DNA of 64,000 nucleotides, taken from the NCBI GenBank assembly GCA_013178125.1, contig JABLXJ010000008.1, positions 78,305 to 142,304 of the forward strand, in the 5' to 3' direction. Each line of letters opens with the position of its first letter. The stretch's first letter is position 1. Source of the stretch: Bacillota bacterium. Lineage in GTDB: Bacteria; Bacillota; SHA-98; Ch115; JABLXJ01. This document shows, piece after piece, positions 3,489 to 61,092 of this stretch. Below the pieces are notes generated by a model. That model was not told the origin of the DNA. It worked only from the letters and a program-made list of their open reading frames with translations, and did not search any database. The position numbers and the translations under genes are program-made.

Positions 3489-3730
3489 AACGCTTACTTC
3501 CCCTTTCGGTGAAATGAATTACGTGATGAATACACGAGATTGGAGAGGGTCGCCTCTTTATGTTAACTAACTCGGCCAGCTATTTCAACACACTATTCCA
3601 GGGAACCTAAGAAGATCGAGGCATGGGAGGAATATCCTTGGCAGGATGGAAATAAAAAAATAAAGCTGGCCGGCTGGCCAGCGCATGTCTCGTAGATATG
3701 AACTAGATATGAAGAACTAGAATATGGACT

Positions 3731-35608: not shown

Positions 35609-36079
35609 TGCCCGGCTCCCTCCTCAATAATTAAGTACCAATGTAAGTAACTGTGTGATTACCAATGAATTTACCAATAGATTACGGATGCGCTTTTCAT
35701 TCTGAAATACGAGAGCCAATACCGACCTCCTGACGAGGCAATATTTGATCCAACGTTTCATTTTGTAAAGACCATGTTTCATTTTTTAATTCGACGTTGC
35801 CGTTTCCTCTCCTGCCGGGCGGCTCTGCTCCGGCCCCGGACCGCGCCTCGAAAATTAATTTATGGCCATATGCCTTGACCCTAAGGCATATGGCCTGTGC
35901 CCACGATGCTTTCCCCTGGTCTCCTGGCATCCATCTTGCTTCATGTGATGGATAAGACATTGAACATGTAAAATGTGTGGAACACCCCAGTAGTCGCCTG
36001 TAATCCTAAGGGCGAGTTTCGAAGATTACCGCTGCTTTTCCAGGACTTACGGTGTTTGCGTGACGGGGCCTTTGAAATT

Positions 36080-36095
36080 TGGCAGGGCCCTCGCG
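36080..36095 (+). promoter_or_regulatory. Candidate sigma-54 (-24/-12) promoter for the amidohydrolase-tct operon
   Basis: TGGCAGGGCCCTCGC has GG (36081-82) and GC (36093-94) at the canonical 12-nt register of TGGCAC-N5-TTGC. It is ~185 nt upstream of the ATG at 36282 and adjacent to the sigma54 activator gene. It is embedded in the inverted repeat AAATTTGGC-N11-GCCAAATTT (36075-36103). Confidence 0.35.
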
Positions 36096-36281
36096 CCAAA
36101 TTTCAACGGAGGCGCGCCGCAAGCGCGCCGTCCCCGGAGCGCAATACCGTAAGTCCTGGAACGTGCTGGTAAACTGGCACAAATTAGGGAACCTGCACTT
36201 AGCATAACTGTAAACATCTCATCTCCACTATCATGGCACATCTCTATTACTGGCATCGACTATGTAAGGAGGTCTTTATCA

Positions 36282-43051: not shown

Positions 43052-43413
43052 GGGATAATACAACTCGCGCTCTATTATAAGGCATGAGGCTATGAGGCCG
43101 CGTGTACAGCCCACTAAGTAACATGGGGGACGTGGCCTCAGCTATATTCCTCGATAACTGCACTTGAGTCTAACTCGAGTCTATCGCCGATAGATATCAA
43201 GTTTAGATTCCCCCAACTTTCAAAATGATGAAATCTTCTACCGAAGGAAAAACTAATATGGCGACGAATACGGAAGAAGATTGTACCTGACCGGGGTCCG
43301 GCCCACCTACCTGTGGTAACCCTGATCATCAATGTCAATGATGGATTGCTTCAAGGGTTGGCGGTATAATGGTCTAACTAGAAGTCTCACTCACTCGACT
43401 ACGACAAGATTGG

Positions 43414-45765: not shown

Positions 45766-47205
45766 ATGAGCGCTGACGAAGTCAGAAACCATGCACTCAA
45801 AGAAAGCAAGGCCGGCAGCGCCGCTGCGCTGCAAGAGACGCCGGCGCCAAAGAGGCGGATAAAGGTCACCGATACGATCTTCCGGGACGCGCACCAGTCC
45901 CTCCTGGCCACCAGGATGCGCACCGAGGATATGCTCGCAGTGGCCGACGAGATTGATAAAGTGGGGTATTATTCCCTGGAGGTCTGGGGTGGGGCTACCT
46001 TCGACTCCTGCCTCAGGTATCTCGACGAGGACCCTTGGGTCCGCCTCCGTAAGCTGAAGGAACGAATCAAGAACACGCCGCTTCAGATGCTTCTCCGCGG
46101 GCAGAACCTGCTCGGCTACCGCCAGTATCCAGATGATGTGGTGCGGGAATTCATAAAGCTCTCCATCGCTAACGGGATAGACATCATGCGTATATTCGAT
46201 GCGCTCAACGACGTGCGCAACATGCAGGTAGCCATCGAGGCCACCAAGCGTGAAGGAGGGCACGCCCAGGCGTCTGTCGTCTACACTACGAGCCCGGTGC
46301 ACAACCTGGACCTCTATGTGAAGATAGCAAGAGCCCTGAGGGACATGGGCGCTGATTCTATATGTATCAAGGATATGGCCGGGCTCCTCACTCCATATGC
46401 AGCCTATGAGCTCGTGAAGCGCCTCAAGGAGGAGATCGCCCTCCCGGTTCACCTTCACAGCCACTATACCAATGGCCTGGCCGCCATGGCCTACCTCAAG
46501 GGAATCGAGGCGGGCGCCGATGGCATAGATACCGCCCTGTCCGCGCTCGCGCTCGGGAGTTCCCAACCGGCTACGGAAACGATGGTTGCGACCCTGCAGG
46601 GGACGCCTTACGATACAGAGCTGGATCTCAGCCTCATCAGCTCGATAAACTCCTATTTCAAGGGCGCAAAGGAAAAATACGCAAAGGTGGCTGCCCCTGT
46701 AGCCGTTAACCCTGAAGGGCTCATCTGGCAGATACCCGGCGGGATGCTCTCGAATCTCAGGGCGCAGCTGAAGGCGCAGGGCATGCTGGATAAGCTCCCC
46801 GCCGTTCTCGACGAGGTCCCGCGGGTGCGCGAGGAGATGGGCTACCCGCCCCTCGTAACGCCCATGAGCCAGATCGTCGGGACGCAGGCTGTCCTGAACA
46901 TCGCTACGGGGAAGAGGTATGCGATAAAGTCAAAAGAAATCCGCGACTATGTCAAAGGCCTCTACGGGACGCCGCCAGCCCCGATAAATGATGATATCAG
47001 GCGGATGATCATAGGCGACGAGGAAGTCGTCACGTGCCGGCCCGCGGACCTTCTCGAGCCACAGCTCGAAAAGGCAGAGGCTGAGCTGGGGGACTACATG
47101 CAAAGCCAGGAGGACCTACTCTCTTACGTGCTCTTCCCCGAGGTGGCCATGGACTTCTTCAAGAAGCGAGAGCAAGTGCAGGAAGAGGCCCAGGCGGGAG
47201 CGTAA
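45766..47205 (+). CDS. oadA: Oxaloacetate decarboxylase alpha / pyruvate carboxylase subunit B-type carboxyltransferase (no biotinyl domain)
   Basis: ITDTIFRDAHQSLLATRMRTEDML (HMGL-like TIM barrel). ~480 aa without a C-terminal biotin domain. Start at 45766 after the GAGGGG RBS. Confidence 0.85.
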   Translation: MSADEVRNHALKESKAGSAAALQETPAPKRRIKVTDTIFRDAHQSLLATRMRTEDMLAVADEIDKVGYYSLEVWGGATFDSCLRYLDEDPWVRLRKLKERIKNTPLQMLLRGQNLLGYRQYPDDVVREFIKLSIANGIDIMRIFDALNDVRNMQVAIEATKREGGHAQASVVYTTSPVHNLDLYVKIARALRDMGADSICIKDMAGLLTPYAAYELVKRLKEEIALPVHLHSHYTNGLAAMAYLKGIEAGADGIDTALSALALGSSQPATETMVATLQGTPYDTELDLSLISSINSYFKGAKEKYAKVAAPVAVNPEGLIWQIPGGMLSNLRAQLKAQGMLDKLPAVLDEVPRVREEMGYPPLVTPMSQIVGTQAVLNIATGKRYAIKSKEIRDYVKGLYGTPPAPINDDIRRMIIGDEEVVTCRPADLLEPQLEKAEAELGDYMQSQEDLLSYVLFPEVAMDFFKKREQVQEEAQAGA

Positions 47206-47221
47206 CAGGTGCCGTGCAAAG

Positions 47222-47490
47222 TGCCAAGATTCTTGGCAGTCTTCCCCGGTCAAAAGTGAAATTGGCAGCTTTCTTGGCAGGCTGCACGTGAAGATGCCAA
47301 GATTCTGGGCAGTTACCCGCTCATCCTGCCAATATTCTTGGCAGTTTGCCCCGGCCAAAGGTGAAAGTGCCAAGAATTTTGGCAGGTCGCGCGTAAAGGT
47401 GCCAAGATTCTTGGCAGTTTTGCCGCGTACAGGGGTTAGCCTGCCAAATTCCTTGGCAAGAGGTGAGTCATCCTGCCAAGTTTCTTTGCA
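47222..47490. repeat. Array of eight imperfect 17-bp palindromes (consensus TGCCAAGATTCTTGGCA), helically phased
   Basis: Copies start at 47222, 47263, 47295, 47327, 47368, 47400, 47442 and 47474. Centre-to-centre spacings are 41,32,32,41,32,42,32 bp, i.e. about 3 or 4 helical turns. Spacers after copies 1 and 4 are similar, giving a ~105-bp higher-order unit. The array lies in the convergent intergenic region between oadA (+) and a DUF355-like gene (-). Confidence 0.85.
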
Positions 47491-47536
47491 GCCCCGACGT
47501 ATCAGTAGCACGTCCGGCGCAGAGCTTCTAGATCTC

Positions 47537-48055
47537 TTAAAGCTTATATCCTATAGTCCTGAGGAGCTTCTTCCGCGCGGCTATATCCTCCGCGCCCTCA
47601 ATCCCTGCGGACACCAGCCCGTCGATGACGCCCAGAATCCCGCGCCCCTGCTTCGTCTCGGCGATGATCACCTCAACAGGATTCGCGGTTGCGCAATAGA
47701 TGCCGCATACCTCGGGCACCTGCTTGATGGCGTTGAGCACGTTGATTGGGTAGGCATTCTCCATGAGGATGATGAAGCTGTGCCCCGCCGCCAGTTTCAA
47801 GGCGTTGTTCCGTGCAAGCTCGACGAGGCGCTCGTCGTTCCCCGCATACCGCACGAGCCGCGGGCCCGAAGATTCGCAAAACGCCACGCCAAACTTGATC
47901 CCCGGGCCCGACGTCGCCATCGCCTCATAGATATCCTCGACGGTCTTTATGAAGTGGGCCTGCCCGAGAATCATATTCATGTCTTCTGGCTTATCGATCT
48001 TGACTACTTTTAGCTCCAACCCTGCTTCCACCATGGCCTCCACCTCGCTATCCAC
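47537..48055 (-). CDS. DUF355/adenosine-specific-kinase-like family protein (tentative)
   Basis: 172 aa soluble protein. From memory it resembles the ~160-aa archaeal/clostridial PF04008-like family, so the family assignment is weak. Confidence 0.35.
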   Translation of the reverse strand: MDSEVEAMVEAGLELKVVKIDKPEDMNMILGQAHFIKTVEDIYEAMATSGPGIKFGVAFCESSGPRLVRYAGNDERLVELARNNALKLAAGHSFIILMENAYPINVLNAIKQVPEVCGIYCATANPVEVIIAETKQGRGILGVIDGLVSAGIEGAEDIAARKKLLRTIGYKL

Positions 48056-48302
48056 CTACTGTTACTACCTAAAAACTGCCCAGCTATTCCCAGGCAATAT
48101 TTTCATTACCTGTGGCGCCGCAGCGCGGCATGAGGGTCTCCTCCGGGAATAACCCAATTATCTCCAACTAGAAATTCGATCCCTTCTAGAGATTTGATCC
48201 CTCTTATTCTTCTTGGCGCTGCGCCAGCGCACGGGGTCTACCCTTATTTATCATCCCCCTAAGGTGTAGCTATCTTGCAGCTATCCTATAGCTATCTTGC
48301 AG

Positions 48303-49838
48303 CTACCTTGCAAGCGCCGCGCCCTGCCGGAATGCCTCTTGGAGGGCGGGATAAAGCGAGGTATAGAGCCTGTAATACCCGTCATATACCTTCACATTCG
48401 CCACATCCGGCTCGGTGTGGCTCATGATGCTGACCGTGCTCTCGGCCGCCTCCTCCACGCTCCGGTAAACGCCGACCCCGACCCCAGCAAGCAGCGCCGC
48501 TCCAAAGGCGGGTCCTTCGTCCACGTTTATCGTAACAACCTCGACATTCATTATATCGGCCTGCATCTGCCGCCACAGCGGGCTCTTTGCGCCCCCGCCG
48601 ATGGCCCTGAGCTGTTTTACCTCGATGCCGAGGCCCTTTATAATTTCGAGAGAGTCCCTGAGCCCGAACACGACACCCTCCATTACCGCACGGGCCATAT
48701 GGGCCTTCCCGTGACGCAGGCTCAAGCCAAAGAATACACCACGCGCGTTAGCATCCGCATGGGGCGTGCGCTCACCTGTAAGATATGGAAGGAAGACGAG
48801 GCCTTCAGATCCAGGCGGGATGCGCCCGGCTGCGCGCCCGATCAAATCATAGGCGTCGATACCGGAAGCCCTCTCGACCTCCTTCTCCACCTGCGCCAGG
48901 GAATCTCTGAACCACTTGAGCGACATGCCGGCCGAGAGCATTACACCCATGAGGTACCACTTGTGCGGGACTGAGTGGTTAAACGTATGCACCCGCCCCA
49001 GGGGGTCTCGTTTGACCTCATCAACCTGCGCCACGATCACACCTGAGGAGCCGATGCTCGATAGAGCGCGCCCGGTCCTCACAATGCCTGCGCCGACGGC
49101 GCCGCAGGTGTTGTCCGCCCCGCCGCCCACCATGGGCGTCCCGGCCGCAAGGCCCGTCTTCTCCGCCACCTCGCGTGTCACGTAGCCGCACACGTCCGGC
49201 GACTCGCACCACCTTGGCACTATATCAAGGGGCAGCCCCAGCCCCTCGAGGACCTCGCGGGACCAGTCCCTCCTGGCTACGTCAAACAGCAGGGTCCCGG
49301 CCGCGTCCGAAATCTCGGTGACGAGCTCGCCTGTCAGCTTGTAACGTATGTAATCCTTGGGAAGAACCACCTTCTTGACCTTGGCGAATACCTCCGGCTT
49401 GTGCTTACGGAGCCAGATTATCTTGGGAGCCGTAAAGCCTTCGAGGGCCGGATTACATGTATACTCGATCAGCTTGTCCCGGCCAATTGTATCAGTAATC
49501 CAGCGACACTCCTCCGCTGTCCTGACGTCACACCAAAGGAGCGCGGGGTGCAGGACGTTATTGTTCTCGTCTAAAAATACGGAGCTGTGCATCTGCCCAG
49601 AAAGTCCTATGCCCTTCACATCCTGGCCGGCTATCCCGGATGAGGCCAGCGCCTTTTGAATGGACCTCACCGTTGCCTCCCACCAGTCCTGCGGGTTCTG
49701 CTCCGCCCAGCCAGGTTTCGGACTGTAGAGAGGGTATTCCTCAAAGGCCTTTCCAATCGTCTTGCCGGATGGATCGCAGATAAGAGTCTTTACGCCTGAC
49801 GTGCCGATGTCGAGCCCCATTAGATAGGCCATACGCAT
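48303..49838 (-). CDS. xylB: Xylulokinase (FGGY family)
   Basis: MAYLMGLDIGTSGVKTLICD N-terminal ATPase motif; GGGA...; 511 aa. Confidence 0.85.
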   Translation of the reverse strand: MRMAYLMGLDIGTSGVKTLICDPSGKTIGKAFEEYPLYSPKPGWAEQNPQDWWEATVRSIQKALASSGIAGQDVKGIGLSGQMHSSVFLDENNNVLHPALLWCDVRTAEECRWITDTIGRDKLIEYTCNPALEGFTAPKIIWLRKHKPEVFAKVKKVVLPKDYIRYKLTGELVTEISDAAGTLLFDVARRDWSREVLEGLGLPLDIVPRWCESPDVCGYVTREVAEKTGLAAGTPMVGGGADNTCGAVGAGIVRTGRALSSIGSSGVIVAQVDEVKRDPLGRVHTFNHSVPHKWYLMGVMLSAGMSLKWFRDSLAQVEKEVERASGIDAYDLIGRAAGRIPPGSEGLVFLPYLTGERTPHADANARGVFFGLSLRHGKAHMARAVMEGVVFGLRDSLEIIKGLGIEVKQLRAIGGGAKSPLWRQMQADIMNVEVVTINVDEGPAFGAALLAGVGVGVYRSVEEAAESTVSIMSHTEPDVANVKVYDGYYRLYTSLYPALQEAFRQGAALAR

Positions 49839-50217: not shown

Positions 50218-50292
50218 TGGGGCGTAGCCAAGCGGTAAGGCACGGGACTTTGGATCCTGCATGCGGAGGTTCGAATCCTCCCGCCCCAGCCA
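50218..50292 (+). tRNA. tRNA-Gln (anticodon TTG)
   Basis: Folded by hand. Acceptor stem TGGGGCG/CGCCCCA with U1:A72 (characteristic of bacterial tRNA-Gln). D arm GCC-AAGCGGTAA-GGC. Anticodon stem CGGGA/TCCTG with loop CTTTGGA. T arm GGAGG-TTCGAAT-CCTCC. Discriminator G, then CCA. Close to B. subtilis tRNA-Gln. Confidence 0.9.
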
Positions 50293-50350
50293 GCAGTTTT
50301 AAGCCTCCAACCGCACATAATCGGCGAGGTTTTTTTGTTTAAAGAGCATT

Positions 50351-50977
50351 TCAATAGCTTGCAAGGAGCTCCTTCTGGAGCCTTGTAAAATACTCTTTAA
50401 CCTCAGTCCAAGTTATCCGGGTCAAGGTGATCGGGTCCACATCCCTTTCGGCGTCATCAAAAAAGGCAAGGCTCCTGATTATATGATAAAGGCTGTATCC
50501 GGTCCCTTTGTATTTATCCTCGAGAAGTTTCAAAAGCTCATTAACGGGGATGACCTCTTTACAGATCACATATAAATCGATGAAGTCCTTCTTACTACCC
50601 CGGCTCGATATAGCCGTAATCTTCATAAGCGCGATGTCCCTGAGATCAGCTATATCTATCCCTTTAAACCTTTTCACGGGGAAAAGCAGCGGGTACTTAT
50701 AAGTCATAAAACTGACCCTGACTCCGTCCAGTATTCCATGCACGGTACACCATGCTTCGCCCGTCAAGCTGAAGCTACCCAGTGAGGCTAGCCTCTGTAT
50801 CAGAGTGACTGGATCAAATTCTTCCCTTGAAAAAAAGTCGAAATCGTAAGATAGCCTATGGCCCAACTGCAACGCTGCAGCCGTGCCGCCGGCTATATAA
50901 AAACGTGACGTGAGATTGTTGCTCTTTAATGAGGCCAAAACGGACTCTCCATTCTCCGGTAATACGTTGACAAACAT
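50351..50977 (-). CDS. Nucleotidyltransferase toxin, AbiEii/MenT (DUF1814)-like
   Basis: YIAGGTAAALQLGHRLSYDFDFF matches the GGTAL..HR.S.DiDfF signature of AbiEii-family NTases. 208 aa. Confidence 0.55.
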   Translation of the reverse strand: MFVNVLPENGESVLASLKSNNLTSRFYIAGGTAAALQLGHRLSYDFDFFSREEFDPVTLIQRLASLGSFSLTGEAWCTVHGILDGVRVSFMTYKYPLLFPVKRFKGIDIADLRDIALMKITAISSRGSKKDFIDLYVICKEVIPVNELLKLLEDKYKGTGYSLYHIIRSLAFFDDAERDVDPITLTRITWTEVKEYFTRLQKELLASY

Positions 50978-51207
50978 CTAACCTCTTCCTCTGCCAGGCC
51001 ATAATAATTCTGCCAGAGACGAGCGGTCTTTCTCGAAAGGCGCCTGCTTGCGCGAATGACCTCCAACCTTTGATTATCACTGTAATAGGACATAACCCAT
51101 CTTATTGACCGGTCGTCTCCGTCTTCCAAAAGCCGCTCGATCACAAAGAAATAGTCCCTATCAGGGTTTATCCTCTTGGGGTCTACGTCCCAAAAAAACT
51201 TATGCAC
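50926..51207 (-). CDS. Small upstream partner ORF overlapping the toxin gene (putative antitoxin; unrecognised family)
   Basis: 93 aa, overlapping the toxin start by 52 nt in the usual antitoxin-upstream arrangement. No wHTH recognisable. Confidence 0.3.
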   Translation of the reverse strand: MHKFFWDVDPKRINPDRDYFFVIERLLEDGDDRSIRWVMSYYSDNQRLEVIRASRRLSRKTARLWQNYYGLAEEEVRCLSTYYRRMESPFWPH

Positions 51208-51453
51208 GAAATCGGGTAGAATAGGGCAACCCTCCCCTACGCGACTCGATTCAAGAAAGCCGTCTCTCGATCCCCTGCAGCTTTATTATATCATGGATAC
51301 CATATTTTATCATCCCGTATTTTATCCTTCATCCGCAAACCTCATCTGCAAAACGTCAAGATTTTTCATGGATATCTGGAGGAATTGGCGGCCAGAGCCC
51401 AGAATATAAAGTAGCACACAATCCCTGATCACGCTCGAAAGGAAGAGTGCCTT

Positions 51454-53103
51454 ATGCATTATCTCCTGGGAGTCGATGTCGGCACCACGCATCTCAAGGC
51501 AATCGTATTCGACGAAAAGGGGAATGAGATCTCTCGATCGATACGGAATACCCCTTCGATAGCCTTCCCCGACGGCAAAGTCGACCAAAACCCGGATGAA
51601 CTCTGGCATGCTGTCGCAGCCACGATAGCGGAGGCGGTCTCAGAGATGGGCGGCCTGGATGATGCGCGGAAGATAGAAGGCCTCGCAGTGGCGAGCGTCG
51701 CCGAGGCCGGCGTCCTGCTGGATGCCCACGGCCAGTGGCTCTATCCGATCATCGCCTGGTATGACCTGCGGACTGTGGCGGAGAGCAACTGGTGGCGCGA
51801 GACGGTCGGCCCGGAGGACATCTTCGCCGTTACGGGGCTCAACGCCGACCCGATGTATTCGGTAACCAAGATCATGTGGATAAAGAATAACCACCCCGAT
51901 GCTTATAACAAGGCGACCAGGTGGCTATGCACCTCTGATTACATAAACTACCGGCTCACAGGGGAGATGGCGATGGATCTCTCCCTCGCCTCCCGGACTA
52001 TGCTGTTCGACCAGCGAAAGCAGGCCTGGTCGGAGGAATTTCTTAGCCATGCGGGGCTTCCCATAACGCTCATGCCGCCCGCCGTAGATTCAGGCACGCT
52101 CGTAGGGAGGGTAACCCGTGAAGCTGCCCGCATGACAGGGCTCCCGGAGGGGATCCCCGTATTTGCCGGAGGGCATGACCACCTCTGCGGCGCGCTGGCC
52201 GCCGGGATCATCGGCACGGGCCTGGTGCTGGATTCCATAGGCACGGCAGAGAGCCTCCTCGGGGTCACTGATGCGCCGAGGCTCTCGCCTGAGGTTCACA
52301 AGATGGGTTTCGGCGTGGGACACCACGTGGTCAGGGATAAATATTACATTATGGGTGGCACCCTCAGCGCAGGGGCATCGATCGAGTGGCTCGCGCGAAC
52401 GTTTATAGCCAATAGCTCTGGCAGCAGCAATGCTGGCGCCCCCCACGGTTCCCATGCTGGTGCGGCGCACGGCGGCCGTGAGACTGAGACACGTGAGGTA
52501 AAAGATGTGTATCGGATAATAGAGAGCCTGGCCCGGGAGAGCACGCCCTGCGCCAGGGGATTATTCTTCCTCCCGCACCTCAGGGGGAGCGGTCCGCCAA
52601 GGCGCGATCCCATGTCGCGAGGGGTCTTCCTGGGGCTCAGGACCCATCATTCGCTGGCGGACATCACACGGGCCACAATCGAGGGCCTCTGCCTCGAGCT
52701 CCGGTCAGGCCTCCAGGCCCTGGAGGCGGCGATGGGCTCGGGCGTCCAGGAGATCCGGGCGATAGGCGGTGGGGCCAAGAATAGATTCTGGCTCGAGACA
52801 AAGGCGACCGTTCTTGGGCGTCCCGTAAAGCTGCCCGGAAATCCCGAGGCCGTGGCCCTCGGCGCAGCGCTCCTTGCGGGTATAGGGTCCGGCATCTACA
52901 AGGACGAGGCCGATGCGGTGAGGAATACCTACCGCGAGCTCGGGCAGGTGGAGCCCGACGGCGACCTGCAGCCCATCTATGATTCCGCCTATTCGATCTA
53001 TAAGTCTATCTACCCTGCTACCAGGGAGATCAGCTATTCTATCGAAACTCAATTAGAGGCTAAACTGAAGGAGCTCGAGTCCAGGTTGAATACCATAGGT
53101 TAA
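51454..53103 (+). CDS. FGGY-family carbohydrate kinase (xylulokinase/rhamnulokinase-like) with low-complexity insertion
   Basis: MHYLLGVDVGTTHLKAIVFDEKGNEI; 549 aa. S/G/A/H-rich insertion (SSGSSNAGAPHGSHAGAAHGG). Confidence 0.85.
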   Translation: MHYLLGVDVGTTHLKAIVFDEKGNEISRSIRNTPSIAFPDGKVDQNPDELWHAVAATIAEAVSEMGGLDDARKIEGLAVASVAEAGVLLDAHGQWLYPIIAWYDLRTVAESNWWRETVGPEDIFAVTGLNADPMYSVTKIMWIKNNHPDAYNKATRWLCTSDYINYRLTGEMAMDLSLASRTMLFDQRKQAWSEEFLSHAGLPITLMPPAVDSGTLVGRVTREAARMTGLPEGIPVFAGGHDHLCGALAAGIIGTGLVLDSIGTAESLLGVTDAPRLSPEVHKMGFGVGHHVVRDKYYIMGGTLSAGASIEWLARTFIANSSGSSNAGAPHGSHAGAAHGGRETETREVKDVYRIIESLARESTPCARGLFFLPHLRGSGPPRRDPMSRGVFLGLRTHHSLADITRATIEGLCLELRSGLQALEAAMGSGVQEIRAIGGGAKNRFWLETKATVLGRPVKLPGNPEAVALGAALLAGIGSGIYKDEADAVRNTYRELGQVEPDGDLQPIYDSAYSIYKSIYPATREISYSIETQLEAKLKELESRLNTIG

Positions 53104-53113
53104 ACACAAGAGG

Positions 53114-54100
53114 TTGAGCCAGGGAACGGAAACGGGGAGAGTCGCAGCAGTGATAGCTACAATTACGCCGAATCCATCGATAGACAGGACGGTATTCGTA
53201 GATGAGCTGGTGCCCGGGAAGCTTCACCGCGTCAGGCTGGTCCGACGGGACCCGAGCGGCAAGGGAGTAAATGTATCGCGCGCCTTGAAATGCCTCGGGA
53301 TGGACTCCATAGCATTCGGTTTCCTCGGCGGAGACCCGGGCAGGGAGCTCGAGGAGGGCATCAAGGCCCTTGGCATTTCGACCAGGTTCACTTGGGTTTC
53401 AGGCGACACGAGGACCAATACCAAGGTTGTCGAGGATAAGACCGGCAGGATGACCGAGATAAACGAACCCGGTCCTCTCGTTTCGGACGGCGATATCGAG
53501 AGGCTGAAGGAGACCATACTATCCGCCGCCGCGGACAAGGAATTCGAATTCGCCGTGCTATCAGGCAGCCGCCCTCCCGGGGTTCCTGATGACTTCTATT
53601 CTGACCTCGTGGCACTGCTCAATAAGCACGGTGTCAAGACCATCCTCGATTGTGACGGCTCAGCCCTCAGGCTCGGCATCGAGGCGAGGCCTTTTATGAT
53701 CAAGCCTAACAGGTTCGAGATGGAGATGCTATTTGGGAAGGCCTTCCCCTCGGCTGGCGAGATCGTAGAGGCCGCAACCGACTTGCTGGGGAAGGGCCTC
53801 TCAGTCGTCGTGATCTCGCTCGGGGCGGAGGGCGCGATCTTCGTCAGGGGGAACGCCAGGGAAAATGAGATATGCTGGGCCAGAGCCGGAGGGCCGGTGG
53901 AGCCGAAGAGCACCGCGGGATGCGGGGATACGATGGTGGCCTCCATCCTGCTGGCGCTGCAGCGCGGGTGGTCCTGGGAATACACTGCAAGGTTTGCGGT
54001 GGCCGCAGCTACTGTAGCAGCAACCAAAGAAGGGACGCAATTCCCGGCCTATGACGAAGCCCTGGATGCTTTGCGGCTCGTGAAGCTAGTCCGTCTATAA
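53114..54100 (+). CDS. PfkB-family sugar kinase (1-phosphofructokinase / tagatose-6-P kinase-like)
   Basis: ITPNPSIDRT N-terminus typical of FruK/LacC. GG dipeptide and C-terminal DTMVA...GA anion-hole region. Confidence 0.8.
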   Translation: MSQGTETGRVAAVIATITPNPSIDRTVFVDELVPGKLHRVRLVRRDPSGKGVNVSRALKCLGMDSIAFGFLGGDPGRELEEGIKALGISTRFTWVSGDTRTNTKVVEDKTGRMTEINEPGPLVSDGDIERLKETILSAAADKEFEFAVLSGSRPPGVPDDFYSDLVALLNKHGVKTILDCDGSALRLGIEARPFMIKPNRFEMEMLFGKAFPSAGEIVEAATDLLGKGLSVVVISLGAEGAIFVRGNARENEICWARAGGPVEPKSTAGCGDTMVASILLALQRGWSWEYTARFAVAAATVAATKEGTQFPAYDEALDALRLVKLVRL

Positions 54101-54243
54101 AGATAGACCCCTCGGGCTTCTCGTTTTCATGTTCATGATGCGCAGGATACGAGCGGTCGGTAAGGCGCATACCCAAAGATACCTGAGCTCGGAAGGAAGG
54201 GAGGCAATTAGGCCCGGCCTAATTCGCCGGGCCCACGCGGGGG

Positions 54244-55326
54244 TTAACAGAAGTTCGACATCAGCGCTTCAGCGTCCGTTTCCTCCATTACTGGGAATAA
54301 CAGATACAAACCATCAGAGCCGTAGCGGTTGACCAGCTTTGTGGCCTTCTCGATCCAATCTTCAACAGTCCCGTCCGATATACCTATCCAAAGCGATTTC
54401 CCCGCAGATTTAGCCTTATCATATATGGGATACCAGAGCTCGCTGCCTCCATCGGGCTTACCGGCCCCCGGCGTCCATTGCAGCGCATCCAATTCGTCTA
54501 TCTCCATCAATGCGTCCAGATGCTTAATAGCGTCCGGCCCGTCGAGGTGATAGAGTGAGTAATCCAGCCTCTTGCATTGTTTGCGCAATGATGGCTGCAC
54601 AAACTCCCTGAACTGCTTTGGCGACATCAGTGCCGAGAAATCACATTGCAGTTTGGCCGTTTTCCCCGGCCCCCATATGGAAAACGCTGTATAGCTGCTG
54701 CTGCCATCATCATCTGCCACGATATCGTAAAAGACATCATAATATCGGAAATATAGTTCGTCTATCTGATGTATGTAATCTTTCACCAACTCCGGCTCAT
54801 CCACGAGGTCAAAACAAAACTCCTGTGGCCCCCGCATAGCAGCTAAGATGTCGACATTTTCGACAATATCCGGGATATTGACCAACATATCTTTATCCGC
54901 TAGCTCCTTTGCTCGCTTCACCGACTCTACATGACGCTTCCACCAATGATTGTCAACATCGTATTTCAGCGGCCCGTGTCGGCGCCAGTTTTCTCTCACA
55001 CATGGTGTGTACCATACTGTATCCCATGCGAAATTAGGCTCCGACCCGAGGTATGTGGCCATAGAACCCGGACCGATGTTAAGGTCCACAGAAGGGAATG
55101 CTTCCGCCATGAATATATGGGTACGGCAAAAGTTACGCATCTCCTTTACAAGCCGCTCTGGATCAAGGTGTAGCGCTTCAGGGTCTTTAGGCGGTTGCAC
55201 CGGTTCAATAGGCTCCATCGGATGGCTACGCCGCGCTATAATTCTGAGCATGGGCCTACCTATGCTGGAATGGTTCCACCATGCTATAAATCGCTCCTTT
55301 GCTTCACCCCAATCTCGCTTATACAT
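54244..55326 (-). CDS. Uroporphyrinogen-decarboxylase (URO-D/MtaA)-fold family protein, divergent
   Basis: C-terminal half (LYHLDGPDAIKHLDALMEIDELDALQWTPGAG) parallels the URO-D-like paralogue at 58705..59715. Start set at the internal ATG at 55326 after a GGAGGA RBS. Confidence 0.45.
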   Translation of the reverse strand: MYKRDWGEAKERFIAWWNHSSIGRPMLRIIARRSHPMEPIEPVQPPKDPEALHLDPERLVKEMRNFCRTHIFMAEAFPSVDLNIGPGSMATYLGSEPNFAWDTVWYTPCVRENWRRHGPLKYDVDNHWWKRHVESVKRAKELADKDMLVNIPDIVENVDILAAMRGPQEFCFDLVDEPELVKDYIHQIDELYFRYYDVFYDIVADDDGSSSYTAFSIWGPGKTAKLQCDFSALMSPKQFREFVQPSLRKQCKRLDYSLYHLDGPDAIKHLDALMEIDELDALQWTPGAGKPDGGSELWYPIYDKAKSAGKSLWIGISDGTVEDWIEKATKLVNRYGSDGLYLLFPVMEETDAEALMSNFC

Positions 55327-55482
55327 TGCTATTGATCCTCCAATCTTCACCGTATCCGCTCGGGCAAGGTATGGCAGAGTTCTCCCCATCACCAGGCAGC
55401 AGCGGCAACTTGAGCAAATTCGCCACAAACAGCGTCACTATGGGGTCTAGAGGGGTAGCGGCCGCCGCTCTCTTACGCAGTC

Positions 55483-56352
55483 TCAGCCCTTCAGGCCGCT
55501 CAAGGTAATGCCTTCGATGAAATTCTTCTGGGCTGCGAAGAAGACGATTAGCACGGGCAATATCGACAGTAGTGTACCTGCCATAATCACGTTCCAATCC
55601 AGCGTTCCAAAAGTCTGGCGGAAAAGCGCCAGCCCCAAAGGCAAAGTCCGCTTGGCCATATCGTCAATCACCAATACGGGCCAGAGGAAGTCATCCCAGC
55701 TGAACATAAAGATAAAGATTCCCAGGGCGGATAAAGCCGGCTTAGATAAAGGAAGCACTATACGACTGTAAATCCCAAATTCCGAGCACCCGTCGATACG
55801 GGCTGCGTCGACCAGGGCTGTCGGGATCCCCATCATGAACTGCCGCATCAGAAAAATCCCATAGGCACTGACCAACCGGGGGATGATCAGTGCCGTTAGA
55901 CTGTTTAGCATCCCTAAGTCTCTTACTATGATGTATACTGGAATTAAGATAACCTCGAAAGGCACCATCATTGTGGCTAAGATGCCCAGAAACAAAATAT
56001 TCCTACCCCAGAAATCAAACTTGCCGAAAATGTAACCTGCCAGAGAACTGGTGAATAAGGTACCCAAGGTGATAGTGGTAGCGACGATCAGGCTGTTCCA
56101 GAGGAAGCTGAAGAAGGGGATTTCACTTAAAACTCGAGCATAGGCCGTAAACCCGGCAAACTCCGTCGGCAAAAAGCGCGGGGGAAATGAAATGGCATCC
56201 CAGTTATACTTGAAGGAGGTGGAAACCATCCAAATAAAAGGTGCCAGCATTATGCTTGCGACAAGGGCGCAGAACACTGCCTTGGCAAGATTCTTGAGGA
56301 GTTTGAGCTGGGTGTACAAGTTGATCTCCTCCCTATTCCTCCCTATTACCAT
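55483..56352 (-). CDS. Sugar ABC transporter permease (CUT1)
   Basis: EAA loop AARIDGCSEFGIYSRIVLPLSKPAL. Confidence 0.85.
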   Translation of the reverse strand: MVIGRNREEINLYTQLKLLKNLAKAVFCALVASIMLAPFIWMVSTSFKYNWDAISFPPRFLPTEFAGFTAYARVLSEIPFFSFLWNSLIVATTITLGTLFTSSLAGYIFGKFDFWGRNILFLGILATMMVPFEVILIPVYIIVRDLGMLNSLTALIIPRLVSAYGIFLMRQFMMGIPTALVDAARIDGCSEFGIYSRIVLPLSKPALSALGIFIFMFSWDDFLWPVLVIDDMAKRTLPLGLALFRQTFGTLDWNVIMAGTLLSILPVLIVFFAAQKNFIEGITLSGLKG

Positions 56353-56385
56353 GGGTTTATTTACCGCTTCGTGTACGTGGATTTG

Positions 56386-57375
56386 TCAGTACTCAAAATC
56401 CGGCTTAAAGTATTTGAGTTGTAGAATTGTTGCGACCAAAACCAGGGCAAAAAGGATAAAGGCCAAAGCCGAGGCTCTGCCCATTTCAAAGAATTTGAAG
56501 CCCGTTTCGTAGATATGCATTACCAGCGTTCGGGTGGCTGTACCCGGTCCACCCTGGGTCATGACGTAAATCTGGGTAAAAACTTGAAACGCCCCGATCA
56601 TACCTGTGACCAATACGAATAACGTAGTCGGTTTAAGTAACGGGATGGTGATATGAAGTAGTGTCCTCCACTGGGAAGCGCCGTCAACCCTGGCGGCTTC
56701 GTAAAACTCGCCGGGGATAGTGGTGAGCCCTGCTAAGAATAGCACCATAGTGTAACCTACGCTCTTCCAGACACTCATGATAATAATAGAAGGCATAGCC
56801 TGGGAGGATGAGTTTAACCATTCGTAAGGCCCCAGGCCGATAAAGCCCAGGACGTAATTAAGCACGCCGAACGTGGGCTGGTAGAGCCAAACAAACATCA
56901 AAGCCACCGCCACCATAGAGGTGACTACAGGCATGAAGATTACCCCTCGCATGAGGCTCTTAAAAGGGTCCCTCAGGCTATTGACAAAGAGGGCCAACAG
57001 CAGCCCGAAAACAATACCAAGAAGAACGTAAAAAAAGGCGAAATATATGGTGTTCTTTACCGAGACCCAAAAAACGGGGTCATTGAACGCCCACAAGTAA
57101 TTTCCCATGCCGAAAAACGGCTTTTCCTTTTCTAAAAGGCCCCAGCGGTGAAGGCTAATATAAAAAGCGGAGGTTACAGGATACACGGAGAAAATAAGAA
57201 AATAAGTCATCACCGGAAAGAGACCGATGACAATAAACCGCAACTGTTTGGCTCTGCCCGCTGAAAACCTGCGTTTGACCCTGTCTTTACGGCTCATGAT
57301 CCGAGTGACCATTGCGCTGTAACGCCTCCTTTGAAGGCCGAGAAATCGAAGATTCGATCTCTCGGCCTCAAACAT
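56386..57375 (-). CDS. Sugar ABC transporter permease (CUT1)
   Basis: EAARVDGASQWRTLLHITIPLLKP. Confidence 0.85.
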   Translation of the reverse strand: MFEAERSNLRFLGLQRRRYSAMVTRIMSRKDRVKRRFSAGRAKQLRFIVIGLFPVMTYFLIFSVYPVTSAFYISLHRWGLLEKEKPFFGMGNYLWAFNDPVFWVSVKNTIYFAFFYVLLGIVFGLLLALFVNSLRDPFKSLMRGVIFMPVVTSMVAVALMFVWLYQPTFGVLNYVLGFIGLGPYEWLNSSSQAMPSIIIMSVWKSVGYTMVLFLAGLTTIPGEFYEAARVDGASQWRTLLHITIPLLKPTTLFVLVTGMIGAFQVFTQIYVMTQGGPGTATRTLVMHIYETGFKFFEMGRASALAFILFALVLVATILQLKYFKPDFEY

Positions 57376-57390
57376 TCAAACATGTCGGCT

Positions 57391-58674
57391 CTATCTGAGT
57401 TCAGCTAATATCGCATTGATACGTTTTTCAGCTTTAGCCAGAGCTTTCTCCGGAGACTGCTCGCCTACAACCATCCGTTCCAATTCCTCTGCCATGGCTG
57501 TGTCGACCTTTGCCCAGCCCGGGATTTTGGCGTAGTAAACCTCTGCAACTTCCAGGGCTTTCCCAAAAGCTCTGATCCAAGGGTCGCTCACATATTCTTC
57601 ATTACTGTAGTTTGCCTTTCGGAAGCTGATGAACCCAATCTTGTTTGCCATCTCGAGGTATTTCTCGTCGTTTGAGAGGTACTGGAGGAATTTCCAGGCC
57701 CATTCCTTCTGGGCGGGGGACGAAGCGGCATTTACCACCCAGAACCAAGCATACATAGAAGTCACTTGACGGGCAGGGCCCTTTAGGGGTGGAATAGCCT
57801 TAAACTTGAGACGGGGATTGTTCTGCCTGAAAAAGGCTCTATCCCAGGGGCCGCCCCACATCATAGCTGACTTGCCCAAGGTAAAGGCGTCAGGAGCATT
57901 CATGAAGTTGGCATGTGTGAGTTTCGCGTAAACCTTGGTAGCTTCCAAGCCCGGGGGAGTATTGAATGCTGCTTTGGTGCCATCTTTGGAGATGTACTGG
58001 CTGCCAAAGGCTCTTACAATAGTGCTCCAGTGGATGACGTTCCAATAACCTTCTTTGGTTGCCATCAGTGTAGTTCCAGCCTGGACTAACCGCCCGTTCG
58101 CATCGTATTTATCCAACTTCTTGTTTGCTGCCAGCAACTCTTCGTATGTCGTAGGGAGCTCCAAGCCGGCCTGCTCATAGAGGTCCACATTGACAATGGG
58201 CGTGGGGATACCAATGTGCTGAATGTACCCATAGATCTTACCATTATACTCTGCACTCTGGCCGGCAACTGCCACGGTATTCTGCCGGATATCTTCAACC
58301 ACCGGTGTGGGAGCTGGGTCAAGCCAGCCACTTTTCACCAGCTCCGCCATCCACGGGCCGTGAACGCCGATGATGTCAGGAGCGGTTCCAGCAACCAGCG
58401 AGGTCATCAGTTTGGTGTATAAATCCTCATGATTTACTGTAGTGTACTCGATTTTGACGTTGGGATGCAGCTTCTCAAATTCCGTGGCTTGTTTTCTCAG
58501 CAGATCATTCCAGGGTTTGTAGTTGTGACTCAAAAACCGAAGGGTAACCTGTTCAGCTGCGGCAGAAATACTTCCTAAAGCAAATACTAGCAGCAGCATC
58601 ACTGCCCCTATAACTACGAACCTGCGGTTCAGCACTTTGATTTCTCCTCCTTTTGTTGTGCACCAGTTGTGCAC
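57391..58674 (-). CDS. ABC transporter extracellular solute-binding protein, family 1
   Basis: Signal peptide; 427 aa. Adjacent to the permeases. Confidence 0.85.
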   Translation of the reverse strand: MHNWCTTKGGEIKVLNRRFVVIGAVMLLLVFALGSISAAAEQVTLRFLSHNYKPWNDLLRKQATEFEKLHPNVKIEYTTVNHEDLYTKLMTSLVAGTAPDIIGVHGPWMAELVKSGWLDPAPTPVVEDIRQNTVAVAGQSAEYNGKIYGYIQHIGIPTPIVNVDLYEQAGLELPTTYEELLAANKKLDKYDANGRLVQAGTTLMATKEGYWNVIHWSTIVRAFGSQYISKDGTKAAFNTPPGLEATKVYAKLTHANFMNAPDAFTLGKSAMMWGGPWDRAFFRQNNPRLKFKAIPPLKGPARQVTSMYAWFWVVNAASSPAQKEWAWKFLQYLSNDEKYLEMANKIGFISFRKANYSNEEYVSDPWIRAFGKALEVAEVYYAKIPGWAKVDTAMAEELERMVVGEQSPEKALAKAEKRINAILAELR

Positions 58675-58704
58675 CCTTTTTTGTGACGTGTTGCTTCTGA
58701 CCCC

Positions 58705-59715
58705 TCAGTAACCTTCAAAAGCTGCCTCCACCATAGCTTTAAAGTTCAACGGATTCACGTAATCCGGTACGGTATTGCTGGAGCCGACACAGTAACCTCC
58801 ATTGTAACCTAGCTTTTCGATACGATCTCGCACCAGCAGCCGTACCTGTTCCGGGGTCCCACGACTCAACAGGTCTACATCGATATTACCGATAAGACAG
58901 AATTGATGCCCCCTCTTGGCTTTCACCTCCTCTGCATCCATAGATTTGGGTTCTAGGGGATGAATTGCTGACACACCGATATCGACGAAATCATCAAAGA
59001 CCTCCCACAAATTGCCATCGGTATGGTACAGGAATGGCACCCCTAGTTGTTTCGCCAGGACAGAGATCTTTTTCATCCAAGGGAACAGATGACCCCGCAG
59101 AAATTCGGGGTTGACCAATAAACCAGATCCGAACGCGATATCATCGGTATACCAAATGGCACCGACCGCCTCACCCGCAAGTTCAACCGCTCTCCTATTA
59201 ACCTCATAGACGGCGTGCCCCAGCTGTTGCATGAGCTCGGCCACAAGCTCCGGTTGTTCATATAGGGAAAGGCAGAAATGGGTATACCCCATATGGGTCC
59301 ATGCTTTTGTGAAAATGTCGCCGGTAGACAGGATGATCTTCATGTCCTGTGGAAGGTGTTTCTTTACATCAATCAAAAGAGAATAGTCGACGTTGTCCAG
59401 CTCGGTGCGCCAAGGCCAGTTCCTTTCTCTCAGATCCTCCCAAGTTCGCAGTACTCCTACGCTTTCAATAGAAGCATCTCTATGGTCAATGGCATCGAAT
59501 CTGTAATCCGGCCGAACATGTACGTAATCATATCCGGCTTTTACCCAAAACTCCACTTCATCTGCCGCAGTCTGCAAGGGATGTTCAATTACCAATTCTT
59601 TGATTTCTTTGGCAATAAGAAATTCCCCCAAGGGTGGGCGATCGGACCGCCCCTCTAAGGTGAGGGATCTACGAATCCGATTGAAGTCAGGCTCCGGCTT
59701 GATGCTTAGTTTCAC
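58705..59715 (-). CDS. Uroporphyrinogen decarboxylase (URO-D) family protein (MtaA/CmuA-like fold)
   Basis: IWYTDDIA, FLYHTDGN, IHPLEP, GNIDV..LSRGTPEQV are recurring URO-D family segments. 336 aa. Confidence 0.65.
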   Translation of the reverse strand: MKLSIKPEPDFNRIRRSLTLEGRSDRPPLGEFLIAKEIKELVIEHPLQTAADEVEFWVKAGYDYVHVRPDYRFDAIDHRDASIESVGVLRTWEDLRERNWPWRTELDNVDYSLLIDVKKHLPQDMKIILSTGDIFTKAWTHMGYTHFCLSLYEQPELVAELMQQLGHAVYEVNRRAVELAGEAVGAIWYTDDIAFGSGLLVNPEFLRGHLFPWMKKISVLAKQLGVPFLYHTDGNLWEVFDDFVDIGVSAIHPLEPKSMDAEEVKAKRGHQFCLIGNIDVDLLSRGTPEQVRLLVRDRIEKLGYNGGYCVGSSNTVPDYVNPLNFKAMVEAAFEGY

Positions 59716-60730
59716 TAGGGTTCCCCCTCGTTTCGGTAGTATTTCGGGGTATAAGTATGCCGGGAATCAGCGTTTGGCTGCCACTGCTGTCCCCTGTACA
59801 CATATCCAATAACATAGTGACTGCTTTCTCCACAATAAGGTCGGACTGTACATCAAAAGCGGTGATTCCTGGCTGGCTCATTTCATCCAAATCTCCCCCC
59901 ATATAGCCAATGACAGCTACTTCGTCAGGGATATTAATCCCCGCCTGTAAAGCTTCCTGGACAAACTGGAAACGGGTCGTGCCTTCACTGATGAGAATCC
60001 CGTCAAATTCTTGATGACGGCTGATTAGATATCTAATAGCCCGTCTCCGCTCATTTTGTTTGCCTGTGCTCCACACACAGAGAGAATGATCGATATCCAA
60101 CCCTGCTTGCTGGCAATTCTTGATCAACTCCTGATAAATGCGAAGATCAACAGCTACCGAAGATCTTCGGCCCAGATGGGCTATACGCCGGCATCCCCTA
60201 CCAAACAGGTGCTGAACCGCTTCACGGATAATTTGCTCTACGTCCGCATCGACGTAGGCGAGGCCATCATTATTAGCGCAACGGCCTACCAAAACAAAGG
60301 GGACTTCGCGGCTCTTGAGGACCGGGATCCGCGGGTCAATCATTTCTACTTCAAAAACCAGGAACCCGTCCACCTGGCCGCCTTCAACTACTTGTTCTAT
60401 TCCGGTAATCCTCGATTGTGATTCTTGATTCGGGTATAGTGTTACGTAATACCCCCGTTTTCTCGCGCATATTATGACCTGAGATATAAACTCAAGATAG
60501 CTTTCTCCAGGGTGATTATCTGGATCAAAGGGGTACAATACCCCGATTGAGTTATTGCTTCCCCTGGCCAAAGTGCGAGCGGCGTGGTTGGGAACGTAGC
60601 CGAGGTTCTGCATGGCCATCTCTACCCGACGACACAGTTCGGGGCGTACGGAAGGTTTGCCATTGATCACATTGGATACTGTCCCCACCGATACTTTAGC
60701 TGCTCTTGCTATATCGTAGATCGTAGGCAT
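59687..60730 (-). CDS. LacI-family transcriptional regulator
   Basis: MPTIYDIARAAKVSVGTVSNVINGKPSVRP HTH. Periplasmic-binding-fold C-domain. Start at the internal ATG at 60730 after GGAAGGG. Confidence 0.9.
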   Translation of the reverse strand: MPTIYDIARAAKVSVGTVSNVINGKPSVRPELCRRVEMAMQNLGYVPNHAARTLARGSNNSIGVLYPFDPDNHPGESYLEFISQVIICARKRGYYVTLYPNQESQSRITGIEQVVEGGQVDGFLVFEVEMIDPRIPVLKSREVPFVLVGRCANNDGLAYVDADVEQIIREAVQHLFGRGCRRIAHLGRRSSVAVDLRIYQELIKNCQQAGLDIDHSLCVWSTGKQNERRRAIRYLISRHQEFDGILISEGTTRFQFVQEALQAGINIPDEVAVIGYMGGDLDEMSQPGITAFDVQSDLIVEKAVTMLLDMCTGDSSGSQTLIPGILIPRNTTETRGNPSETKHQAGA

Positions 60731-61092
60731 CTTTTTCCCTTCCATCCCTTTTCAATGAAGCGCTTCATTTATATAGTAGCATTGTTAATTCTTGTAGTCA
60801 AGAGGATGAATACTGGTACTGGACTTATGATATGAGGCCCCACTATATGGAATGCGGCAGCTAGCTGGGAGTCTGTGCTAGAAACAGATGGCATGGAAAG
60901 AGTCGCAAAATTACTTCTTTGGCTATCCACTTGCCGTGCGTTGGTTCCGTTAGAGCTAGGGCAAGCGTCTGGAGTGATTGAGAGTGTCAGAGGTGGGCTG
61001 TGTGCTACCAAGACGGTACGCACCGATAGCGCCGTATTGGTACCGGCGCTCGTATAAGAAGTCTCTTTGCTGGAACCCGGCACTTCATAGGC

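Follow-up and report, generated by a model that had tools for sequence, protein, structure and literature searches.

A helically phased array of palindromes between convergent genes of an uncultured Bacillota bacterium as a candidate protein-binding array

Here we analyse a stretch of 64,000 nucleotides from a Bacillota bacterium (assembly GCA_013178125.1, contig JABLXJ010000008.1, positions 78,305 to 142,304; the whole stretch is called the window below), in which eight copies of a 17-bp palindrome, or dyad, stand at positions 47222-47490 between two genes that converge on them. We tentatively read this element as a non-coding, tandemly amplified array of dyad-symmetric binding sites for a putative dimeric protein, and as one of a small class of arrays found in promoter-less spacers between convergent genes of a few uncultured Bacillota; we place the probability of this reading somewhat short of even. 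What carries it is that the sequence and the geometry of the sites are conserved while their pairing and any reading frame are not, which points to a symmetric protein that recognises duplex DNA and depends on neighbours bound to the same face of the helix.

The arrangement of the sites suggests a basic mechanism. A sequence-specific dimeric DNA-binding protein would occupy each dyad, meeting two half-sites whose centres lie 11 bp, or roughly one helical turn, from each other. With successive dyads set 3 or 4 turns apart in the window and 4 or 5 in its relatives, the bound dimers would be aligned on one face and could touch each other, and ~270 bp could be coated as a single cooperative nucleoprotein complex. 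This complex might serve as a roadblock or insulator between the converging transcription units, as a topological (supercoil) barrier, or as an anchoring or titration site. Because there is no promoter and both neighbouring genes end at the array, we consider a structural complex more likely than a regulatory one; this structural role, in which our confidence is low, is the weakest step of the mechanism. The binding of a protein, its cooperativity and the function of the complex are all things that we infer from sequence statistics.

Phased dyads and their relatives

Every copy follows the pattern TGCCAA-N5-TTGGCA around the consensus TGCCAAGATTCTTGGCA, and no strand is assigned to any of them. 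Copies 1 (47222-47238) and 6 (47400-47416) match the consensus perfectly. Copy 3 (TGCCAAGATTCTGGGCA, 47295-47311) and copy 4 (TGCCAATATTCTTGGCA, 47327-47343), which opens the second unit of the duplication described below, each carry one mismatch. Two mismatches are found in copy 5 (TGCCAAGAATTTTGGCA, 47368-47384) and in copy 8 (TGCCAAGTTTCTTTGCA, 47474-47490), where one of the changes falls in the right half-site; copy 7 (TGCCAAATTCCTTGGCA, 47442-47458) has three, with both half-sites intact and a different centre, and copy 2 (TGGCAGCTTTCTTGGCA, 47263-47279) has four, with a degenerate left half-site. When the 17-mer is searched with up to three mismatches, all of its strand-matches in the 64-kb window (13/13) fall inside the array, where shuffled sequences would give 0.23, and no copy is found elsewhere in the window at this threshold. 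The degenerate dyad TGCCAA-N5-TTGGCA, allowed at most one mismatch, gives 7 matches against 0.12 expected.

Measured from start to start, the distances between successive dyads are 41, 32, 32, 41, 32, 42 and 32 bp. At a helical period of 10.5 bp the eight site centres give a resultant of R = 0.973, and this value drops steeply as the assumed period moves off 10.5 bp (0.86 at 10.4, 0.88 at 10.6, 0.30 at 10.8 and 0.22 at 10.2). Among 20,000 sets of random spacings not one equals it; if only four of the intervals are taken as independent, the corresponding p is 0.005.

The array grew by tandem duplication, since a 105-bp unit within it is duplicated in direct orientation (47222-47419, plus strand). 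Tandem Repeats Finder reports this duplication with a period of 105 bp, 1.9 copies, 81% matches and a score of 275, and a second repeat finder concurs (family D2, 93 nt, 81% identity, spacing 105). Each unit holds three dyads followed by spacers of 24, 15 and 15 nt, and the spacers of the three dyads inside one unit are mutually unrelated, so that the conservation of the cores must be older than the recent duplication. The dyads are flanked by AAAG, AAGG, ATCC or AGCC on one side and by GTTT, GTCT or GGTC on the other; the left flank of all units is asymmetric (A at -4 in 8/8, T at -6 in 7/8) and is not mirrored on the right side. The original prediction had described eight palindromes, perfect at 47222 and 47400 and with one to four changes elsewhere, spaced 32 or 41-42 bp apart on one face of the DNA, containing a duplicated unit of ~105 bp and lying between the end of oadA (47205) and the 3' end of a minus-strand gene (47537). 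Our copy search, phase statistics, repeat analysis and gene assignments agree with it on all of these points.

Arrays of the same kind are found in other Bacillota. When 185,579 species genomes were scanned for adjacent pairs of perfect cores, 23 loci came back, most of them unrelated (such as coding repeats or isolated pairs). Four, all from uncultured Bacillota, are true arrays built on an extended half-site, (A)GTGCCAA(C/G), and three of these come from metagenome-assembled genomes (MAGs) of Candidatus Fermentithermobacillaceae. Locus L021 carries 13 copies (12 within one mismatch and a degenerate terminal one) at a 42-bp period between convergent M48 and M28 peptidase genes; L001, which is L021's locus in another species, carries 17 copies, again with a 42-bp period; and L092, a further array in addition to these four, has 4 copies at the M48/M28 peptidase locus. 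In L019, 9 copies abut the 3' end of addA at distances that alternate between 41 and 42 bp and so do not preserve a frame, and in L004, 6 copies with a 52-bp period lie between convergent histidine phosphatase and radical SAM/SPASM genes. Location in a convergent spacer is confirmed at three independent loci, the window included, and half-confirmed at L019, where one neighbour is identified. Counted in helical turns, the periods of 32, 41/42 and 52 bp amount to 3, 4 and 5. The innermost pair of the dyad is symmetric but lineage-specific: the sister arrays have C...G where the window has G...C, a difference that would be expected both from a hairpin and from a homodimer with an altered half-site preference.

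How these arrays vary tells us what is being kept. In L001, 13 in-phase units repeat at a period of exactly 42 bp with zero indels; the six TGCCAA positions are invariant (entropy 0), while the spacer columns average ~1.4 bits, and the spacer entropy shows no 3-base periodicity (1.33, 1.45 and 1.36 by phase). Invariant cores, an indel-free period and saturated, aperiodic spacers together indicate that this array is old and non-coding and that its cores and its spacing are maintained. In the 54 units of six arrays the core pairs, six per unit, show 40 deviations from consensus, of which 33 break pairing, 5 are one-sided wobbles and 2 are double changes. In each array the G-T mismatches balance the A-C ones, so that no strand-specific hairpin is under preservation. 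The centre of the dyad (N3-N5) is free to vary, which fits a spacer that lies between two half-sites and is not contacted. The extra copies of L021 have near-identical spacers, indicating recent amplification there. Among the identities that the original prediction had offered, it is the cooperative array for a dimeric protein that this pattern supports best, with its invariant half-sites, free centres and spacers, lack of compensation and locked period.

Turnover and competing explanations

Several observations weigh against a protein-binding array. In the window's own array the duplicated spacers are conserved about as well as the cores, so the argument from selection leans mainly on the sister arrays, and what ties these to the window's array is core, architecture and context only. 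Pfam scans of the window link the array to no gene for a DNA-binding, Par or Rep protein. The palindromes are able to form hairpins (-4.6 to -11 kcal/mol), and their location at gene 3' ends fits a role at the level of RNA. The copies counted are those of the 64-kb window and the related loci. A sister species of ~85% nucleotide identity (L090, GCA_012839815.1, and again L097) has the same convergent gene pair, oadA and adoK, at 83-93% nucleotide identity in the genes, and is array-free: its spacer is 158 bp long, has no homology to that of the window and holds zero motif copies. L093, whose M48 protein is 72% identical, has no array at the M48/M28 junction either, because the two genes overlap there. 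Finally, the copy number at this one locus shifts fast (0, 4, 13 and 17), much as a neutral minisatellite would.

From the absence of the array in the sister's oadA/adoK spacer and in L093 we conclude that it is dispensable locus by locus. The M48 protein of L092 is 91% identical to that of L021, and the 4 copies of L092 are orthologues of L021's final four; relatives farther away arrange the genes of the M48/M28 locus in another order. The more distant oadA relative L025, with 82% identity in protein, lacks an array and has another gene as its neighbour. Over the time in which species diverge, arrays are thus acquired, lost and changed in size; at no given locus is one essential, and the one at the oadA/adoK locus is recent or dispensable. 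It had been proposed beforehand that absence of the motif from close relatives with the same flanking genes would suggest that the array is a recent, non-functional slippage product. The absence is there, but the window's array is not a one-off product of slippage, since the same kind of array recurs in other Bacillota. The sister spacer carries a long inverted repeat of its own (L090 7040-7115, GCGTGCCTCTATTCT...AGAATAGAGGCGCGC, enclosing ~85 nt), so that the same convergent junction is occupied there by a different palindromic structure.

The main rival to a protein-binding array is a palindrome cluster that acts in single-stranded form, like the repetitive extragenic palindromic (REP) elements and the bacterial interspersed mosaic elements (BIMEs) into which they group. 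The dyads would then be tandem 3' hairpins in both converging mRNAs, stopping read-through or shielding the messages from 3' exonucleases, or they would be hairpin substrates of a REP-associated tyrosine transposase (RAYT) that spreads or amplifies them. We consider this possible, if unlikely. It accounts well for location and turnover, as the 17-bp dyads are extragenic, sit at 3' ends between convergent genes, come and go among close relatives and change quickly in number. Intact copies fold as hairpins at -7 to -11 kcal/mol (copy 1 at -9.4 and -8.7 kcal/mol on its two strands), the whole spacer folds far more stably than shuffled versions of it (z = -4.9 and -7.9), and it contains no canonical terminator. 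REP elements prefer convergent spacers and cluster into BIMEs (PMC3184786), and a passage of PMC2817692 gives a Stenotrophomonas REP class whose hairpin, GGTGG-GTGCCAACC-TTG-GTTGGCAC, is nearly that of the sister arrays.

What an RNA or single-stranded role leaves unexplained is a period locked within 1 bp to whole helical turns. It also sits poorly with the core departures, 33/40 of which break pairing without compensation, and with G-T and A-C mismatches that show no strand bias. Hairpin folding is weak in three of the eight copies (-1.3 to -4.8 kcal/mol, copy 2 marking both ends of this range on its two strands), and there are no U-tracts. According to PMC2817692, REPs usually number more than 100 dispersed copies per genome, switch orientation from one to the next inside BIMEs and have a head of the GTAG type. 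In the array, units run head-to-tail, as seen from the direct duplication and the shared asymmetric left flank, the flanks differ from a GTAG or GGTGG head, and no further copy occurs outside the arrays in the 64-kb window or in ~100 kb of related-genome loci; nor is there a Y1-transposase (RAYT) gene among the Pfam-scanned open reading frames (ORFs) of the window. The REP/BIME-like alternative raised by the original prediction therefore holds as far as the extragenic palindrome goes and fails on head motif and alternation, with no dispersed copy in the sequence examined. The two readings do overlap, because BIMEs themselves bind proteins, among them gyrase, IHF and Pol I (PMC3184786).

In a neutral minisatellite, a palindrome-bearing unit would have expanded by slippage or unequal exchange in a harmless spacer and would be functionless. 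This is improbable as a full account, and yet it explains the window array taken alone: the direct 105-bp duplication at 81% identity, spacers conserved about like the cores, and a sister species array-free despite the same flanking genes all sit well with it, as do the range from 0 to 17 copies at one locus, the near-identical spacers of the L021 expansion and an assembly that breaks inside the array. It does not explain the recurrence and the constraint of the sister arrays. Drift gives no reason for the same half-sites and whole-turn spacings to recur at unrelated loci, or for cores to stay invariant and the period free of indels amid the saturated spacers of L001. Even in the window the spacers within one 105-bp unit are unrelated, and core conservation predates the recent duplication. 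The broken assembly is the Logan assembly of the source sample (SRR6186653), which stops just past copy 4 (L024 11092-11233); the array breaks short-read assembly, and copy numbers of such loci in public assemblies may be unreliable.

The array could also be imagined as an enhancer that acts from afar or from downstream, or as a decoy array, with a sigma-54 activator or some other regulator as its partner, a proposal to which we assign very little probability. Its appeal lies in the shape of the sites, since TGC-N11-GCA dyads of 17 bp that are 32 bp apart on the same face resemble NtrC-type enhancer sites. A gene for a bacterial enhancer-binding protein (bEBP) with the domains PrpR_N-PAS-AAA-HTH_8 lies 12 kb upstream (33665-35608, minus strand). 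There is a good sigma-54 promoter candidate, TGGCATccatcTTGCT, at 35925-35940, and a weak one, GGGCGC-N5-TTGCA with 2 mismatches, upstream of adoK (48309-48324, minus strand); matches with 2 mismatches are near chance in the window, at 35 found against 25 expected. Dyad pairs 32 bp apart stand just upstream of AAA_14+DUF4143 ATPase genes in unrelated taxa, and action from downstream has a precedent in the rocG enhancer of B. subtilis, which reportedly lies downstream of its gene (Belitsky and Sonenshein 1999). However, the bEBP gene has its own candidate upstream activating sequence by its promoter (GGCCATATGCCTT-N6-AAGGCATATGGCC, 35863-35897), and the oad operon has a sigma-70-like promoter of its own. 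No sigma-54 promoter with at most 2 mismatches is found in the spacer and none stands consistently near the sister arrays, on which grounds we reject a promoter of this type inside the array and disfavour an enhancer role tied to one. The sister species keeps homologous bEBP and oad genes without the array, and to our knowledge 8-17 sites is far above the number in any enhancer. An enhancer or decoy role for the nearby activator is thus unlikely.

The remaining candidates can be dismissed briefly. A coding repeat was suggested by the 42-bp period, equal to 14 codons, and by open frames in the sister arrays (two reading frames of the window's array spacer are stop-free as well), and it is ruled out by the 32/41/42-bp spacings, of which 32 and 41 do not divide by 3, the 41/42 alternation of L019, the missing 3-base periodicity in L001 and the lack of any Pfam match among ORFs running through the arrays. 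A strand-specific RNA hairpin is rejected on the balanced mismatches and the uncompensated core departures, and a known RNA family on the Rfam search, which gave nothing in the spacer at gathering threshold or at E <= 1 beyond one chance sub-threshold match to the mir-255 hairpin. An intrinsic terminator, with a G+C-rich stem and a U-tract behind it, is rejected, as the scan gives no terminator-like site in 47206-47536 and copy 6 has GTTTT at most after it. The exclusion of CRISPR, in which repeats of 23-47 bp alternate with unique spacers of comparable length and cas genes are usually present, in the original prediction is upheld by the 17-bp cores, by spacers of 15-25 nt that are themselves duplicated, and by the absence of cas genes among the scanned window ORFs. 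A replication origin or terminus is rejected, as the GC skew does not switch at the array, and so is a plasmid or phage origin, as blastn against 72,556 plasmids and 50,697 phages gave no match and no arrays were found in viral contigs.

Provided that a protein really coats them, the arrays would be bacterial equivalents of insulator or centromere-like repeat arrays, placed where transcription units collide. How convergent transcription and its supercoiling are contained is poorly understood outside the REP/BIME elements of E. coli, and an array of 8-17 sites would be a ready-made bait for an unknown DNA-binding protein from an uncultured lineage. We entertain, as a doubtful extension, that the arrays form an undescribed class of chromosomal cis-element, in which phased landing pads for a dimeric or oligomerising protein that coats the spacer between converging operons would serve as insulators of transcription and supercoiling or as chromosome anchors, and would be gained, lost and resized by tandem duplication. 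Should they be only hairpin clusters or neutral minisatellites, they would amount to an ordinary lineage-specific repeat, useful as a strain marker and as a warning of assembly breaks.

Genomic surroundings and dyads elsewhere

The array lies in a 331-bp intergenic spacer (47206-47536, no strand) between the stop codons of its two neighbours. On the left, the oadA-like gene (45766-47205, plus strand) has PYC_OADA and HMGL-like matches and encodes an oxaloacetate decarboxylase alpha subunit without biotin domain, identical to NPV53611.1, which a 156-kb contig of a 'Firmicutes bacterium' MAG encodes together with NPV53612.1. It closes an operon of oadG, a biotin carrier gene, oadB and oadA, whose sigma-70-like promoter lies near 43320-43350. 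On the right, the adenosine-specific kinase gene adoK (47537-48034, minus strand; Adenosine_kin, PF04008) has its 3' end towards the array, and an FGGY kinase gene comes next after it. Our promoter scan finds a single weak promoter-like match in the spacer (47405-47376, minus strand), which arises because TTGGCA looks like a -35 hexamer. Pfam scans of the larger window ORFs find no ParA, ParB, ParR, Rep, Y1 transposase or cas. These scans agree with the original prediction that no par or rep gene adjoins the array and that there is no promoter for it to control; its suggestions of a parC/parS array, an iteron or an operator are not supported as specific identities.

Two further places had been named as holding related half-sites, and neither belongs with the array. 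The first (48269-48306) is a separate 11-bp tandem repeat, AGCTATCTTGC, of which four copies at 48268-48312 straddle the 3' end of the FGGY kinase gene; an 18-bp tandem unit upstream of adoK (48168-48202, 2 copies) is likewise distinct from the array motif. The second (36075-36103) is a hairpin in a structured leader at 36042-36160. This leader has a form like a three-way junction, in which CCAGGACTTACGG...CCGTAAGTCCTGG encloses the hairpins GAAATTTGGC/GCCAAATTTC and GGCGCGCC/GGCGCGCC; it has no Rfam match and could be an unclassified leader RNA. The operon that it precedes starts at 36282 and comprises genes for an amidohydrolase, TctCBA, a DHO-dehydrogenase-like protein and a class II aldolase. 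Between this operon and the bEBP gene, the palindrome GGCCATATGCCTT-N6-AAGGCATATGGCC stands ~45 bp upstream of the TGGCATccatcTTGCT promoter match, and the two (35863-35940) are probably the activator's enhancer and promoter. The sister species lacks the amidohydrolase-TctCBA-aldolase part of this cluster, and its sigma-54 activator is shorter (398 aa, against 647 aa in the window), being without the N-terminal sensor domains. Its FGGY kinase gene is separated from adoK by an insertion of two helicase-like genes (Helicase_C_3/ResIII), at L090 2497-6337 against 48056-48302 of the window.

Farther from the array, the minus-strand genes at 449-21299 (a yaaO-like decarboxylase gene, darA for the c-di-AMP receptor, holB, rsmI, metG, tatD, a yabE-like gene, ksgA, yabG and veg) follow what we take to be the gene order of the origin-proximal block of Bacillus subtilis over the window's first 21 kb, and the window may lie near oriC. 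On the other side, a tRNA-Gln gene (50218-50292) is followed by an AbiEii-like toxin gene (50351-50977), the G+C content drops from ~0.57 to ~0.50 from ~54 kb over a sugar ABC-transporter/LacI cluster, and a DDE transposase fragment is found at 61287-62042; the stretch 50218-62042 may have been acquired.

Outside the Bacillota arrays, three unrelated contigs (L011, Parachlamydia, 3539-3587; L014, 1153-1201; L056, 4971-5019) each have a pair of dyads exactly 32 bp apart that lies 30-70 bp upstream of a gene for an AAA_14+DUF4143 ATPase; these ATPases share 49-71% identity. The -35 hexamer of a TTGGCA-18-TATAAT promoter in L011 coincides with the right half-site, an arrangement predicted to let the dyad act as a promoter-proximal operator in nature. 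The pair looks like a conserved operator of this uncharacterised ATPase family, and this suggests the AAA_14+DUF4143 ATPases as a candidate class of binder; no homologue of theirs is present in the window or in the Bacillota loci examined. A universal helical-phasing rule for TGCCAA-N5-TTGGCA pairs is unsupported, as the metagenome scan gave a mixed picture with spacings of 24-55 bp and many coding repeats.

Two other repeated patterns came up among the loci. The pair TGCCAATTGAATTGGCA / TGCCAATTCAATTGGCA, with a separation of 39 bp, is a conserved element that we see in a Prevotella MAG and again in nine or more metagenome contigs (L008, L028, L033, L046, L049, L050, L053, L062, L072 and L089). 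L059 (780-1277) contains at least 12 units of 41 bp with the form GTGCCA-N7-TGGCAC, in which the inner stem co-varies (AAC/GTT, ATG/CAT, ATA/TAT) and each spacer carries a second conserved motif, TCCWTGCATA. Unlike the Bacillota arrays, this one appears to preserve pairing.

Comparison with known systems

A literature search on the motif, on phased palindromic arrays and on DUF4143 gave nothing relevant beyond papers on REP elements and on sopC. Two further systems can be compared from general knowledge. At NtrC-type enhancers, such as that of glnAp2, dimers bound to whole-turn sites assemble into a higher oligomer, and 2-5 sites stand near a sigma-54 promoter. The window's array shares with them 17-bp TGC-N11-GCA dyads and the whole-turn separation of 32 bp; it differs in that such arrays have 8-17 sites and no convincing promoter, and the sister arrays are not near sigma-54 promoters. 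The family of repeats (FR) in Epstein-Barr virus oriP repeats a 30-bp unit ~20 times in tandem, every unit having an 18-bp palindrome for dimeric EBNA1, and works in tethering and maintenance. The likeness here is one of architecture, an analogy only, with a eukaryotic virus and no evolutionary link.

The REP elements and BIMEs of proteobacteria, BIME-2 among them, are also short extragenic palindromes in regular clusters, with a preference for 3' ends and convergent spacers and with variable copy number. The array departs from them in having no other copy in 64 kb, in its head-to-tail units without a head motif, in its helical phasing, and in its host, which belongs to a different phylum.

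Closest of all is sopC, the centromere of the type Ia partition system of plasmid F, which according to PMC3177203 has 12 repeats, 43 bp in length, and in each of them a 16-bp inverted repeat to which SopB binds. Like sopC, the array consists of tandem direct repeats with one dyad per repeat and a period of about four turns, and it lies at the 3' end of an operon with no promoter. Unlike sopC, it has no parA/parB (sopAB) genes adjoining it or in the 64-kb window by Pfam scans, its context is chromosomal and metabolic, its spacings are mixed (32 and 41/42 bp), a sister species is without it, and the blastn search gave no similarity to plasmids. The array therefore has the repeated-site architecture of a partition centromere, and the architecture only, without adjacent par genes or conservation in relatives. 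Each of these families differs from the array in at least one defining feature, so we file it under none of them and describe it by its architecture, which is closest to sopC and also close to BIME-type clusters.

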